Shown: in pieces, positions 16,372 through 64,000 of the stretch
How the letters are laid out: each line of letters begins with the position of its first letter
Numbering within the stretch: position 1 is the stretch's first letter
Source: Chloroflexota bacterium
GTDB taxonomy: Bacteria > Chloroflexota > UBA11872 > VXOZ01
Assembly (NCBI GenBank): GCA_963663275.1
Contig: OY760183.1
Coordinates: 1,472,001-1,536,000 of the forward strand
Reading direction: 5' to 3'
DNA length: 64,000 bases
Notes under the pieces: model-generated
What the model saw: the letters and a program-made list of their open reading frames with translations, nothing else
Database searches by the model: none
What the model was told of the DNA's origin: nothing
Program-made: the position numbers and the translations under genes

Positions 16372-17096
16372 CGTTCGCTCCCCGGGTTTCCCTGGCGCGG
16401 TGTGAAGCCCAACCCGTCGCGCGCCTTTACGGTACTGAAACGCGCGCCCGGAAACTCTGATTGAATGTGATAGACGGTCCACGGTTCCGGCGGCGCGGCC
16501 AAGGCGCGGGCGAAAGCCCGCACCGCGTCCGCTTGCGCCAGCCGCGTGGAGCCGGCCGGCGGTGGGGCGCTGGCATCGGCTTCACTGAGGTTTCCCAGGC
16601 GCAGGCACGTGACGGCCATGCGCCCTTCCCGCGCGAATTCGCGGCAGACGAACTCGCCCAGATGGCGCGCCAGCACCGGCGGTTCGGTGGAGGGCCGGGG
16701 CCGCCATTGCTCGTCGATTGCCCAATCCTCGTCGCAGTTCGCGAAGAGGCCCAGGCTGCTGGCGTAGACGCAGCGGGAAACGCCGGCCGCCCTGGCGGCA
16801 AGCAAGAGGTTGTAGGTGCGGCGGGTGTGGTAGTCGAGCAGCCGGTTCGCCGCGGACTCCGCGTCTTCCGACTTGCTTGCGGCGTTCTCAGAATGAAGTG
16901 CGGCCAGGTGGATGAGCGCGTCCACCCCGGCCACCAGGCGGTCGGTCTCCGCATCATGGCCCAGCGCGCAGCGGGTGAACGGCCACGGTCCCGGCGCGTC
17001 CACCACGTCCGTCAGGCGCACGTCGTGTTCCGTAGCGAGCGCCTCCGCCAGGTTTTGGGCCAGGGCGGATGCGCCCGCCGTAATCAGGATGTTCAT
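16368..17096 (-). CDS. NAD(P)-dependent epimerase/dehydratase-like paralogue (catalytic YxxxK not evident)
   Basis: MNILITAG, LIHLA, VYASS, LRLG; translationally coupled to the downstream paralogue. Confidence 0.7.
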   Translation of the reverse strand: MNILITAGASALAQNLAEALATEHDVRLTDVVDAPGPWPFTRCALGHDAETDRLVAGVDALIHLAALHSENAASKSEDAESAANRLLDYHTRRTYNLLLAARAAGVSRCVYASSLGLFANCDEDWAIDEQWRPRPSTEPPVLARHLGEFVCREFAREGRMAVTCLRLGNLSEADASAPPPAGSTRLAQADAVRAFARALAAPPEPWTVYHIQSEFPGARFSTVKARDGLGFTPRQGNPGSER

Positions 17097-17180
17097 CCCA
17101 GCGGCTCCATCTTGTTTCTTCCAGAGTCTTGCAGCCCGCAGTCACGAGCCGCGGGTCGCGGTCGAGCGGGGGACAAGCCC

Positions 17181-17342
17181 CAATACTGTCGCATTAACGT
17201 AGCGCGGGGGCTTGTCCCCCGCCGGAATAAGAGAAATGCTAACGAAATGGATTGACCCTACGGAAGACGCAGGTTACAAACCTGCGCTACCGGAGAAACG
17301 AGCGTTGTTTTCACTCTCATTGTGTTTAATGCGACAGCATTG
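17181..17342. mobile_element. MITE family 2 (CAATRCTGTCGCATTAA ends) inserted in a family-B REP, carrying a B+C REP pair
   Basis: 17-bp TIRs caatactgtcgcattaa / ttaatgcgacagcattg; 11-bp direct repeat gggacaagccc on both sides; removing the element restores an intact family-B REP. Confidence 0.8.
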
Positions 17343-17403
17343 GGGACAAGCCCCCGCGCTACGTGGAGGCGCGCAATCGCGGCCGGGCGTTGGCGCGTAT
17401 TCA

Positions 17404-20115
17404 TCACAGCGGCTCCATCTCGTCCCAGCTTGCGCCGGCTTTGGCGTCCACTTTCACCGGCACGTCCAGCGTCACCGCGTTTTCCATCAGCGGCACGACC
17501 AGATCCGCGCCCGCGTCGATCACCGCCGCATCGCATTCGAACACCAGTTCATCGTGCACCTGCAGCAACATGCGGGCCGGGAGTGCGGTTGCCGCCAGTT
17601 GCGCGGCCACGTGGAGCATGGCCACCTTGATGATGTCGGCGGAGGTGCCTTGCACCGGCATATTGATCGCCATGCGCTCGCCGGCCTGGCGCACGTTGTG
17701 GTTCGAGGCTTGCAGTTCCGGCAGGTAGCGGCGTCGGCCCAGCAGGGTCTCGACGTAGCCGTGCTCGTGGGCAAACTGCTTCGTCTTCTCGGTATAATCG
17801 CGCACGCCGGCGTAGGTGTTCAGGTAGTTCTCGATGAATGCCGCCGCTTCCTGGTAGTTCAGGTCGGTGCGCTGTTCCAGACCGTGGGCCGTCACGCCGT
17901 AGATGATGCCGAAGTTCACCGTCTTGGCGGTGCGCCGCATGGCGGCGGTGACGCCGTCCATCGCCACGTCGAACAATTGGCTGGCGGTGAAGGTATGGAT
18001 GTCTTCCTCGTTGCGAAAAGCCTTGCAAAGCTCTTCATCCTGGCTCAGGTGCGCCAGCACGCGCAGGTCGATCTGCGAATAGTCTGCGGCCAGCAGCGCC
18101 CGGCCGGCGCCGCCCGCCACGAACGCCTTGCGAATCTTCCGTCCCTCCTCGGTGCGGATGGGAATGTTCTGCAAGTTGGGGTCGGTGGACGAAAGCCGGC
18201 CGGTGGCGGCGCCGGTCTGTTCGAACGAGGTGTGGATGCGGCGCGTCTCCGGGTTGACCTTGGTCGGCAGCGCGTCGAGATAGGTGGACTTCAGCTTGGT
18301 AAGCTGGCGGTAGGCCAGCACGCGCTCGATCACCGGATGCGCGCCCCGCAGCGCCTCCATGATCGAAGAATCGGTGGAGTAGCCGGTCTTGGTCTTCTTG
18401 GTGAGCGGCAGGCCGAGTTCGTTGACGAGGATGTTGCCGAGTTGCTGGGTGGACTTGATGTTGAACTCGTGCCCCACGTCGGCGTAGATCGCGCTCTCTA
18501 TCTCGGTAATGCGCGCTGCCATTTCTTGTGTAAGGTTCTCGAGCAAGCCCACGTCCACGGCGACGCCGGCGAACTCCATCTCCGCGATTACGGCGGCCAG
18601 CGGCAACTCCAGGTCGTCGTGCAGCGCGCGCACGTTCCGCTCCTCCAGGTCGGCGGCCAGCGCGGCGCGGAGGGGCAGCAGCGCCCCGGCCTCCTGGGCG
18701 GCCGCCTGGGCCAGCGCGCCGCCGTCGGCTCCGGCCAGTGACTTCTTGCGGTCGCGCAGCGCGTCCACGCCCTCCAGCGTGACGCCGAGGCTATCGAAGA
18801 CGATGTGGTTGAGCGTGCTGGCGCGGCCGCCGGTGGGGTTGGCCAGGTACGCGGCCAGATGGCAATCGAACACCACGCCGGCCACGGCCACGTCCTGGGC
18901 CAGGAGCGCCAGGCTCAAGGTCTTGGCGTCGTAGGCCACTTTGGGAACGCCCGGGTCGCTCAGCGCCGGCGCGATGGCGTGCAGCGCTGGGGCTGCCGCA
19001 ACGTCAACGTAGGCCGTGCCCCGCTCGTTCCAGGCGAACGCCAGCCCCCGCACGGTGGGCCAGGAAGGCGGATCGGGTTCGAGGACGGGCACGACGGCGA
19101 CCTCGCCTACGTCGCGCAAGGTTGCGCACAGTTCCTCGATCGCGCCAATCTCGCTAAGCGCCCGAGCCTGCACGCCGGCGGCGGCCGCGCCGAAGAGCGC
19201 CGCCTGCTCCGCCGCCGTGCCGGCCGGCCGCGGCAGGCGGTCGAGCAGCGAGCGGAAGCTAAGTTCGCGGAACAGGGCCAGCACCGCTTCCCGGTCGTAG
19301 TTGCCCAGTTCGCTGGCCGCCGGTTCGAGCGTGATCTCCACGTCGCGCACGATCGTCACCAACTCCCGGCTGCGGGCAAGCTGTTCCTTATCCTGTTCCA
19401 GCGCCTTCTGCTGGCGGGTGGGCAGTTCGTGGAGGTTATCGAGAATGCCGTCGATGTCGCCGTATTTCCGCAAAAGCGTGCCGGCCGTCTTGGCGCCGAT
19501 GCCGCGCACGCCGGGCACGTTGTCGGAGGTATCGCCCACCAGCGCCTTGTAGTCGATTACTTGCGCCGGGGTGAGACCCTGAAAGCGCTTGGCCACTTCC
19601 GGCGGGCCGACCTCAGCCAACTCGCCGGAGCGGGGCCGGGGCACCAGCAGGCGCACCACGTCGTCCACCAGTTGGTAGGCGTCGGTATCGCCGGTGACGA
19701 TGAAGGTGGGAATCGCTTGCGCCGCCGCCTGGCGGGAAAGCGTGCCAAGCACGTCGTCGGCCTCGTAGCCCGGTTCCTCGAAGATGGGAATGCGAAAGGT
19801 CTCCACCACCTGGCGCACCCGGTCCATCTGCTGGTAGAGCAGCGGATCGCCTTCGGGCCGGGTGGCCTTATACTCGGTGTATTGTTCGTGGCGGAAGGTG
19901 GGGCCGGGCAGGTCGAAGGCCACGGCGGCGTAGCGCGGCTTGAGCTTGTCGATGACGTAGAGCAGTGTGTTGGTGAAGCCGAACACCGCGTTGGTCATCT
20001 CGCCGGAGGCGCTGGTGAATTCCTTGGGCACCGCGTGGAACGCCCGGTGGACGATGGAGTGTCCATCGATGAGGACCAGCGAGTCGGCGGGGGATTGGTC
20101 GCCAGCGGGACTCAT
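17404..20115 (-). CDS. polA: DNA polymerase I
   Basis: 5'-3' exonuclease LIDGHS...EADD...GDTSDN; TGRLSSTDPNLQNIP; motif A DYSQIDLR, motif B RRTAKTVNFGIIYG, motif C VHDE; start uncertain. Confidence 0.97.
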   Translation of the reverse strand: MSPAGDQSPADSLVLIDGHSIVHRAFHAVPKEFTSASGEMTNAVFGFTNTLLYVIDKLKPRYAAVAFDLPGPTFRHEQYTEYKATRPEGDPLLYQQMDRVRQVVETFRIPIFEEPGYEADDVLGTLSRQAAAQAIPTFIVTGDTDAYQLVDDVVRLLVPRPRSGELAEVGPPEVAKRFQGLTPAQVIDYKALVGDTSDNVPGVRGIGAKTAGTLLRKYGDIDGILDNLHELPTRQQKALEQDKEQLARSRELVTIVRDVEITLEPAASELGNYDREAVLALFRELSFRSLLDRLPRPAGTAAEQAALFGAAAAGVQARALSEIGAIEELCATLRDVGEVAVVPVLEPDPPSWPTVRGLAFAWNERGTAYVDVAAAPALHAIAPALSDPGVPKVAYDAKTLSLALLAQDVAVAGVVFDCHLAAYLANPTGGRASTLNHIVFDSLGVTLEGVDALRDRKKSLAGADGGALAQAAAQEAGALLPLRAALAADLEERNVRALHDDLELPLAAVIAEMEFAGVAVDVGLLENLTQEMAARITEIESAIYADVGHEFNIKSTQQLGNILVNELGLPLTKKTKTGYSTDSSIMEALRGAHPVIERVLAYRQLTKLKSTYLDALPTKVNPETRRIHTSFEQTGAATGRLSSTDPNLQNIPIRTEEGRKIRKAFVAGGAGRALLAADYSQIDLRVLAHLSQDEELCKAFRNEEDIHTFTASQLFDVAMDGVTAAMRRTAKTVNFGIIYGVTAHGLEQRTDLNYQEAAAFIENYLNTYAGVRDYTEKTKQFAHEHGYVETLLGRRRYLPELQASNHNVRQAGERMAINMPVQGTSADIIKVAMLHVAAQLAATALPARMLLQVHDELVFECDAAVIDAGADLVVPLMENAVTLDVPVKVDAKAGASWDEMEPL

Positions 20116-34973: not shown

Positions 34974-35352
34974 CCCCTCACCCCGGCCCTCTCCCCAGGG
35001 AGAGGGGGTCTTTCCCCCGTAGCGCTGGGGCTAGTTCCCAAGGATAGGGAGTCTGCTCGCCGTAGCGCGGGGGCTAGTCCCCCGCCTGGCGCGGCGCGCA
35101 TCTATGGTGGCATCAACGTAGCGCGGGGGCTTGTCCCTAATGCTGTCGCGTAAAGCTGATGAGCACTGTACTACCCGTTCGTGCTGAGCCTGTCGAAGTA
35201 TGAGCGGGTAGTACAGTGCGCCATAACCAACCCGCCGTTCATACTTCGGCAAGCTCAGCACGGGCCTTTCGACAGGCTCAAGGCGAACGGCTGCGCGCGT
35301 GTTCATCCATTTCTCAAGTGTAGTCAACGTAGCGCGGGGGCTTGTCCCCCGC
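34974..35352. repeat. Mixed REP cluster (families A, B, F) with a lone MITE-2-like left end at 35138
   Basis: taatgctgtcgcgtaaa follows gggcttgtccc; ccgttcgtgctgagcctgtcgaag pair; several family-B copies. Confidence 0.75.
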
Positions 35353-63742: not shown

Positions 63743-63887
63743 GAGGTCCTCCTTTTGCTCTCCGGCAAGGCTGCTATTCTCGTTCACACAGCTATTGTAG
63801 CTAGATGGCGCGATGTGTGCTGGTTTCCATGAGCGCCTTGCCTGGGATGGTGTTTGCCTTTTGCGCCAAGAGGCGGGGGACAAGCCC

Positions 63888-64000
63888 CAATGCTGTCGCA
63901 TTAACGTAGCGCGGGGGCTTGTCCCCCGCCGGTATGGGAAGAATGAGAAAGAAATGGATTGACCATACGGAAGACGCAGGTTACAAACCTGCGCTACCGG
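63888..64000. mobile_element. MITE family 2, second copy (right end beyond the window)
   Basis: caatgctgtcgcattaa after gggacaagccc; internal B+C REP pair closely similar to 17181-17293. Confidence 0.7.

Follow-up and report, generated by a model that had tools for sequence, protein, structure and literature searches.

A REP interrupted by an element that carries a REP

At positions 17170-17353 of the 64,000-nt window analyzed here (G000:C1:1472001-1536000, from a genome that consists of a single 3,531,182-bp contig with 64.3% G+C), a REP of the family termed REP-B is interrupted by 162 bp of DNA that itself contains an intact REP-B. This locus raises the question of what the inserted DNA is, which enzyme placed it there, and what follows from an insertion that brings along a copy of its own target.

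The element extends from 17181 to 17342 and has a 128-bp body between two 17-bp TIRs. The left TIR (CAATACTGTCGCATTAA; 17181-17197, plus strand) and the right TIR (17326-17342, minus strand; TTAATGCGACAGCATTG on the plus strand and CAATGCTGTCGCATTAA on the minus strand) are complementary at 16 of 17 positions. They are flanked by two exact copies of the 11-bp sequence gggacaagccc (GGGACAAGCCC), at 17170-17180 and 17343-17353, and this layout bears out the initial annotation, which had described a 162-bp element with 17-bp TIRs and an 11-bp duplication. Both 11-mers are parts of the interrupted target REP-B on the minus strand: its 3' half (17166-17180, GCGGGGGACAAGCCC on the plus strand) has the left duplication as its last 11 nt, and its 5' part (17343-17362, GGGACAAGCCCCCGCGCTAC on the plus strand) has the right duplication as its first 11 nt. 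When the element and one 11-mer are taken out, the flanks join as GCGGGGGACAAGCCCCCGCGCTAC, the reverse complement of GTAGCGCGGGGGCTTGTCCCCCGC, thus restoring on the minus strand a perfect 24-nt REP-B with its GTAG head, 7-bp stem and 5-nt loop. That excision would restore the consensus REP had been proposed before; the joined flanks are indeed a 24-mer with 362 exact copies in the genome, or 520 at up to two mismatches.

The body carries a pair of REPs, as had also been claimed. An intact GTAG-headed REP-B with a 7-bp stem and a CTTGT loop lies on the plus strand at 17199-17222, 1 nt inside the left TIR, and positions 17268-17290 hold a copy of a second family, REP-C, which reads GTAGCGCAGGTTTGTAACCTGCG on the minus strand and is inverted with respect to the cargo REP-B. 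The element has no coding capacity, and its neighbors are a family-A DNA polymerase (polA-like) gene and an NAD-dependent epimerase gene, both on the minus strand. No Rfam match was found within 16900-17600. Folded as single-stranded DNA together with its duplications, the element reaches −46.8 kcal/mol (z = −7.6), and none of 200 shuffled sequences did as well.

The TIR motif, searched at up to three mismatches, occurs four times in the window versus 0.16 times expected, a 25-fold excess, and none of 100 shuffled windows reached four. A second copy of the family begins on the plus strand at 63877 with the duplication gggacaagccc (63877-63887), followed by the left TIR (63888-63904) and the cargo REP-B (63906-63929), and runs past position 64000 to genome position 1536049, 49 nt beyond the window. 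Because the window is part of one single contig, this copy can be traced beyond the window end, where its right TIR (genome 1536033-1536049, 33-49 nt beyond the window) is followed by gggacaagccc; the end that the initial annotation had noted at 63888 therefore has its matching counterpart. The further end that it had noted at 35138 is a mixed case. A TIR-like end (TAATGCTGTCGCGTAAA, 14 of 17 positions matching) does follow the 11-mer in the opposite orientation, gggcttgtccc (35127-35154, plus strand), but it is part of another element, about 180 bp long (window about 35138-35319), for which a right TIR could not be recognized. The family of this longer element yielded 35 BLAST pieces of at least 60 nt including its own locus, the others having 68-94% identity.

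Copies and target duplications across the genome

A genome-wide search for TIR-like ends at up to three mismatches found 193, of which 130 adjoin a REP-B half at the hairpin apex, with the REP cut 3 bp into each stem arm, which supports the fixed insertion position claimed from the window. Seventy-five ends abut the 5' part of REP-B, ending ...CTTGTCCC, and 55 abut the 3' part, ...GCGGGGGACAAGCCC; 11 abut GGGTGAGGGGG or its complement, six abut another SSS-N5-SSS palindrome, and 46, many of which are next to degenerate REP-Bs, fall in none of these classes. Insertions are found in both orientations relative to the REP.

BLAST of the genome with the window element returned 817 pieces, 46 of them full length. 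Both TIRs were recognized at up to four mismatches in 38 of these 46 copies, the other eight having no recognizable TIR on one side, and among the 38 there are 27 with an exact 11-bp duplication, one with a 12-bp duplication and ten with none that is exact. Independent pairing of TIRs gave 70 candidate pairs, and 43 were kept at up to two mismatches between the 11-bp flanks: 30 of 162 bp, six of 177 bp, one each of 174, 175 and 184 bp, and four of 1194 bp. The duplication is exact in 35 of the 43 paired elements and imperfect in eight.

Several rare target variants (gggctcatccc, gggacgagccc, ggggacggccc, cccacaagggg and ccccctcaccc) are present on both sides of the same element, and gggctcgtccc is present on both sides of one 1194-bp copy. 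Only a true duplication would make such variants co-vary on the two sides. Moreover, a REP has a single loop, yet both flanks carry the loop, and the 11-mers are therefore a real duplication and not simply two REP halves. MITEs are short (about 70-300 bp), non-coding, multicopy elements with TIRs and a target duplication of fixed length, and they have an autonomous relative with the same ends. With its size of 162 bp (variants of 174-184 bp), its TIRs and duplication, 46 full-length copies and a 1194-bp insertion sequence (IS) with the same ends, the window element is a real gene-less transposon of this kind.

The family has not been shaped by transposition alone. Left ends are in excess over right ends (75 versus 55), and many left ends are solo units of TIR plus REP-B, some of them in 38-bp tandem arrays such as that at genome 1042715-1042807. 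The excess fits frequent loss of the body, leaving scars of a solo left TIR with REP-B, and the solo units and arrays imply that deletion, slippage or REP recombination also contribute. These same features, together with TIR plus REP-B units in all 16 congeneric genomes, might be taken to mean that the TIR is merely the linker of a mosaic, BIME-like REP cluster and that the 11-mers arose by recombination or slippage of neighboring REPs. We regard this as very improbable. Four times, a transposase gene is enclosed by the 17-mer as an inverted pair; exact 11-bp direct repeats flank 35 elements, and where these are rare variants the two sides co-vary; targets that are not REP-B (cccacaagggg and ccccctcaccc) still give 11-bp duplications; and elements lie in either orientation relative to the REP.

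An IS4-family insertion sequence with the same ends

The four 1194-bp elements are copies of one IS, located at genome 381634-382827 (copy 1), 1063162-1064355, 1098012-1099205 and 3018017-3019210. The other three differ from copy 1 by 4-8 nt. All four lie in a REP-B and are bordered by 11-bp duplications of it; in one case the REP-B is a variant with a CTCGT loop. A single open reading frame of 367 codons is open in all of them, with 0-1 residue differences and no frameshift, and tblastn found no further transposase paralogue in the genome.

The 367-aa protein matches Pfam DDE_Tnp_1 (PF01609) at 7e-23 and scores 156.9 bits against the NCBIfam IS4 equivalog model NF033592, for which the cut-off is 115. 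A stretch of the protein, YRKRWQIELFFRWLK, fits the Y-2-R-3-E-6-K signature, which defines the IS4 family (De Palmenaer et al. 2008, PMC2266710). The closest annotated plasmid-borne relatives, at 27-33% identity, are labeled IS4 family, ISRel1 family and ISRm16 family, and a sequence search of solved structures with the transposase gave no significant relative (best E 0.56). The initial annotation had pointed to IS4 on the basis of ends and duplication length; four IS copies that share the TIRs and the 11-bp duplication and encode a transposase matching NF033592 now give this link a concrete basis.

The left TIR of the window MITE is identical at 16 of 17 positions to both ends of the IS, and the right TIR matches one IS end at every position; MITE and IS also agree in duplication length and target. 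The 17-bp TIRs are all that the MITE and the IS have in common, their subterminal sequences being different. We therefore rejected an origin of the MITE by simple deletion from the present IS.

Taken together, these data make it highly probable that the MITE was moved by the transposase of the 1194-bp IS4-family IS through 11-bp staggered cuts into the tip of REP-B and that its body is a captured doublet of REP-B and inverted REP-C. We infer mobilization in trans by this transposase because ends, duplication length and target are shared and because young copies co-occur with the intact IS; the cut-and-paste chemistry is likewise inferred, from family membership, as is the mode of target recognition. 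In the proposed mechanism, the 367-aa transposase would bind the 17-bp ends of either the IS or the MITE and excise the element. Integration would then proceed by staggered cuts 11 bp apart, centered on the dyad of REP-B. Cuts 3 bp into each stem arm, with the 5-nt loop between them, would leave GGG-CTTGT-CCC on both sides. Every new MITE copy would add one intact REP-B, which later insertions could use. Duplications in the IS4 family usually span 7-13 bp, roughly a turn of the helix. Cut-and-paste chemistry is stated for its member IS231A (PMC2266710).

Target choice at the hairpin tip

The 11 duplicated bases comprise the loop and 3 bp from both stem arms, which places the two cuts symmetrically around the dyad. 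Of the 43 duplications, 39 are REP-B-like, most with the full GGGN5CCC and a few degraded. The remaining four (cccacaagggg, ccccctcaccc, gggtgagggtt and gacagaggtag) depart from GGGN5CCC. The genome contains 1,698 GGGN5CCC sites, 572 REP-B-like and 1,126 others, and 263 of these 1,126 lie outside a crude coding mask, some of them being split REP halves. Among the 43 paired elements, every GGGN5CCC duplication is REP-B-like. This suggests, within the limits set by selection against genic insertions and by the crude mask, that the target is recognized by more than the bare GGGN5CCC.

REP-B itself appears to belong to another mobile system. With its many copies, it fits the usual description of REPs as short, imperfect palindromes rich in G+C. 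The genome has one Y1_Tnp gene of RAYT type (43.7 bits versus a cut-off of 23, with HAH and RYVLNNP motifs), with three REP-Bs upstream and three inverted REP-Bs downstream, and IS copy 1 is inserted within one of the upstream REP-Bs. The REP-Bs that flank the RAYT gene identify REP-B as a RAYT-associated REP of the classical type. For Chloroflexi, GTAG repeats are on record (PMC3733652).

Cargo, nesting and the possible renewal of targets

REP-C is present in 132 exact copies, or 374 at up to three mismatches, and the doublet of REP-B and inverted REP-C occurs 123 times in the genome, 41 times behind a left TIR and 82 times without a TIR. As the doublet is common and mostly free of a left TIR, the cargo looks like a captured free-standing doublet. 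The 82 copies without a TIR, together with the presence of a RAYT gene (Y1_Tnp, 43.7 bits versus 23) flanked by REP-B arrays, would also be expected if the cargo were a REPIN moved by the RAYT, with the TIRs as passengers. This explanation is hardly credible, since what is repeated identically is the whole unit with both TIRs, between 11-bp duplications, and since there are no full 162-bp units without duplications among the 43 pairs. Elements moved by Y1 (HUH) transposases are not known to make target duplications or to have TIRs.

The proposal that the element seeds new landing sites as it spreads is borne out as anatomy. Seventy-nine of the 520 intact REP-Bs (15%) lie directly behind a left TIR and are thus MITE-borne, and of the 55 REP-Bs with a TIR next to their 5' part, six (11%) are cargo copies. 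Comparison of these shares indicates that cargo REP-Bs are used about in proportion to their number and not preferentially. Four of the six interrupted cargo cases are 38-bp tandem units consisting of the left TIR, 1 nt and the first 20 nt of REP-B, which could also have been made by slippage between 20-bp direct repeats 18 bp apart.

Nested copies, which had been suggested as a point to examine, are found beyond these tandem units in three cases. At genome 1319818-1320112, a 100% identical twin of the window MITE interrupts the cargo REP-B carried by an old copy of 78% identity; the copy at window position 63888 is inserted the opposite way round into the REP-B next to a solo left TIR; and the IS copy at genome 3018017-3019210 lies in the cargo REP-B of a MITE-like unit. 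These three cases cannot be explained by slippage. A literature search on MITEs with REP cargo or nesting gave nothing specific among the best 15 of 185 matches.

Recent activity and distribution among relatives

Comparison of 31 copies of 162 bp (disregarding the mis-oriented row 2729029) revealed groups of eight, six and three identical sequences, the group of eight including the window copy. Judged by their sequences, such identical groups point to recent bursts. Intact transposase copies were found in one of the 17 genomes of the genus, the source genome; the closest congener (G011) has fragments only, one of them with an in-frame TGA. MITE copies of at least 93% identity are all in the source genome.

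MITE DNA matches are present in 16 of 16 congeners versus 0 of 24 genomes from other genera of the class. Outside the source genome these matches are 70-100% identical, pieces of more than about 100 nt having 71-84% identity, and those close to identity are confined to the TIR plus REP-B, where they reach 98%, or to the REP-C part, where they reach 100%. Units of TIR plus REP-B also occur in congeners in which the transposase was not found.

Old MITE relics of 75-83% identity in congeners without the transposase, and the fact that the similarity of MITE and IS ends at the 17-bp TIRs, are what one would expect if a different transposase of the clade, since lost, had amplified the MITE and the four IS copies merely kept the ancestral ends. 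We consider this improbable, because the youngest MITEs (the groups of eight, six and three) are confined to the genome with four intact, near-identical IS copies, because the right TIR of the MITE equals one IS end and duplication length and target are the same, and because the genome holds no other paralogue. Amplification by the resident IS4-family transposase thus remains the preferred reading.

A search for the empty site in the 16 congeners found 15 in which the matches of the flanking genes abut or overlap (by 19-24 nt in 14 and 11 nt in one), with no DNA between the genes; in the closest congener, the two genes are at different places. There is consequently no orthologous intact REP for comparison. 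The contigs of four public short-read runs all break in the repeat; none spans the window site and none skips the MITE, which is uninformative either way.

The transposase clade in other genomes and metagenomes

Relatives of the transposase with 35-80% amino-acid identity were found at 12 loci on genome contigs and 41 on metagenome contigs. The genome contigs are labeled Chloroflexota, Chloroflexia, Thermomicrobiales, Thermomicrobiaceae and, in one case, Rubrobacteraceae. In 400 further genomes of the phylum, the transposase was not detected beyond the source genome at E ≤ 1e-40, and the clade-level evidence therefore comes from these 12 genome and 41 metagenome loci, which include mutual duplicates (L013/L071/L052-54 and L076/L077).

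The TIRs are conserved in the clade, and both ends could be paired at 28 loci. Exact direct repeats of 9-11 bp are present at nine of these, repeats of 10 bp with a single mismatch at three, and no repeats at the other 16. The flanks were surveyed at 66 ends in 41 loci with at least 26 nt of flanking sequence, some of these loci being duplicates. At 22 of the 66 ends, from 19 loci, a GTAG starts 17-23 nt outside the junction, in 19 of the 22 at 19 or 20 nt; as each REP has a single head, no element can show the GTAG at more than one of its ends. Among the control tetramers counted at the same distance, TGAG scored 6 and the other four scored 0.

From host to host the duplicated sequences vary widely, examples being CGGGCTTGCCC, GGGTTCAGCCC, GTTCGCGAAC, GGTCTTGTGC and AGGCATGCCT. 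As the GTAG distance is kept while the loops differ, insertion into the tip of a GTAG hairpin appears to be a property of the clade, whatever the loop. It is tempting to go further, although we put this forward only tentatively and think it rather less than probable: the clade may read the architecture of RAYT-type GTAG REP hairpins instead of a fixed sequence, and its REP-doublet MITE may be a RAYT-independent multiplier of REPs that renews its own targets.

Relation to known elements

Insertion into REPs is a published phenomenon. Insertion sequences of five families, including the IS4 family with ISRm22, target REPs (Tobes and Pareja 2006, PMC1525189). ISRm22 of Sinorhizobium meliloti, assigned to the IS4Sa subgroup of the IS4 family (De Palmenaer et al. 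2008, PMC2266710), is a close parallel: it is an IS4-family DDE element with all copies in REPs at the axis of the palindrome (PMC1525189, PMC2266710). It differs in its phylum and in its direct repeats, reported as 6 bp versus 11 bp here, and the passages on ISRm22 in these two papers mention no MITE derivative with REP cargo. IS1397 and ISKpn1 of the IS3 family and ISPpu9, ISPpu10 and ISPa11 of the IS110 family resemble the present elements in that all copies lie at one fixed point of the REP (PMC1525189), but they have transposases of other families with other chemistry and duplications of 0-3 bp.

IS231A of the Bacillus cereus group (IS231 subgroup) makes an 11-bp duplication at the target motif GGGNNNNNCCC (PMC2577343, Table 1), which GGG-CTTGT-CCC fits exactly, and transposase-less IS231 derivatives with the same inverted repeats, MIC231, are moved in trans (PMC6199540). 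However, the ends of IS231 elements start with CAT and their size is at least 1450 bp (PMC2266710, Table 1), versus CAAT and 1194 bp here. As to the target, four of our 43 duplications are off GGGN5CCC, and none is a GGGN5CCC unlike REP-B despite 263 such sites in crudely defined non-coding DNA.

Within the IS4 family, the ends fit the consensus of both the IS4 subgroup and IS4Sa. For the IS4 subgroup, whose type is E. coli IS4, the fit includes the end pattern -AATR--------WTW and a duplication within 10-13 bp, but its typical size is 1400-1650 bp versus 1194 bp (PMC2266710). For IS4Sa, both ends (CA------T) and size (1150-1750 bp) fit, whereas its duplications are 8-10 bp versus 11 bp here (PMC2266710); the size fits IS4Sa only. 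A 'spectacular apparent insertion specificity' is described for some IS4-subgroup members, and a striking target specificity for ISRm22 also (PMC2266710).

Implications

The window MITE is an ordinary kind of selfish DNA with one unusual trait: the site at which it lands is also part of its cargo. It is a well-documented case, from a Chloroflexota lineage not in culture, of a phenomenon known from the literature, and goes somewhat further in quantifying the share of REPs that are MITE-borne and reused and in the GTAG-distance rule across the clade. The finding accounts for a large part of this genome's repeat landscape and links three selfish systems in one chromosome, namely REPs with their RAYT, an IS4-family IS, and MITEs. 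With 43 pairs, rare target variants and both orientations, it also provides a clean natural data set on a DDE transposase that chooses the tip of a hairpin. If the clade-wide reading is true, the 15% of REP-B copies that are MITE-borne would represent one selfish element farming another, the REP copy number in some bacteria would be driven partly by DDE transposons and not by RAYTs alone, and the transposases of this clade could serve as a model for structure-guided target choice.

Genomic setting of the MITE in the window

The 162-bp MITE at window 17181-17342, which has 17-bp terminal inverted repeats (TIRs) and an 11-bp duplication inside a copy of the 24-nt hairpin repeat REP-B, lies in the 287-bp spacer between a polA-like gene and an epimerase gene. 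This spacer is composed of the REP-B, the MITE and approximately 90 nt of unique DNA, and its whole length is bracketed by two direct copies of a ~21-nt sequence (tTCATCcCAGCGGCTCCATCT / tTCATCaCAGCGGCTCCATCT; window 17093-17114 and 17399-17420). In the congeners examined, there is no spacer, and the two genes overlap by the same ~21-nt stretch. It follows that the overlap of the genes became duplicated as the spacer arose.

Parts of window 16700-17800 are present in contigs of the public sequencing runs X1, X2, X6 and X7, several of which carry the label sponge metagenome. A 1627-nt contig from X6 matches 17336-17800 with zero differences, and all of these contigs end within the MITE/REP block.

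REP-associated loci elsewhere in the genome

The only RAYT-type (Y1_Tnp) gene of the genome lies outside the window, at contig positions 382840-383740; three REP-B copies in direct orientation precede it upstream, and another three, inverted, follow it downstream. The outermost upstream REP-B is the insertion site of copy 1 of the 1194-bp IS4-family element that is the partner of the MITE.

Two kinds of tandem array were observed outside the window. At 1042700-1042810, 796625-796679 and 1348048-1348084, a 38-bp unit recurs in which 1 nt separates the left TIR from the initial 20 nt of REP-B; either repeated nested insertions whose bodies were lost or slippage between the 20-bp repeats could have produced these arrays. 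At 3017780-3017980, REP-C, a second REP found inverted in the MITE cargo, is arrayed with a period of ~52-55 bp next to a MITE-like unit bearing IS copy 4.

A secondary landing site, GGGTGAGGGGG / CCCCCTCACCC, occurs genome-wide (examples at 1928525-1928701, 362660-362836 and 3019232-3019248) and is located terminally in a different dispersed repeat (GGGAGAGGG..GGGGTGAGGG). It is abutted by 11 of the 193 genomic TIR ends (at most three mismatches), and two other genomes (loci L016 and L019) have related IS copies inserted in repeats of this type.

Further non-autonomous families

A third family, of ~180 bp, is represented at window 35138-35319, where its left end matches the TIR at 14 of 17 positions and a right TIR is not recognisable. 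This copy is flanked by a degenerate solo TIR with REP-B and by another, intact REP-B. Used as a BLAST query, it returned 35 pieces of at least 60 nt, including its own locus, the others showing 68-94% identity.

The second MITE family, 174-175 bp long, was found outside the window (1297267-1297441 and 2092928-2093101). Its TIRs are those of the 162-bp MITE and it makes exact 11-bp duplications in REP-B; its body is unrelated to that of the 162-bp MITE, and it accounts for 21 of the 193 TIR ends. A single transposase probably serves three or more such non-autonomous families.
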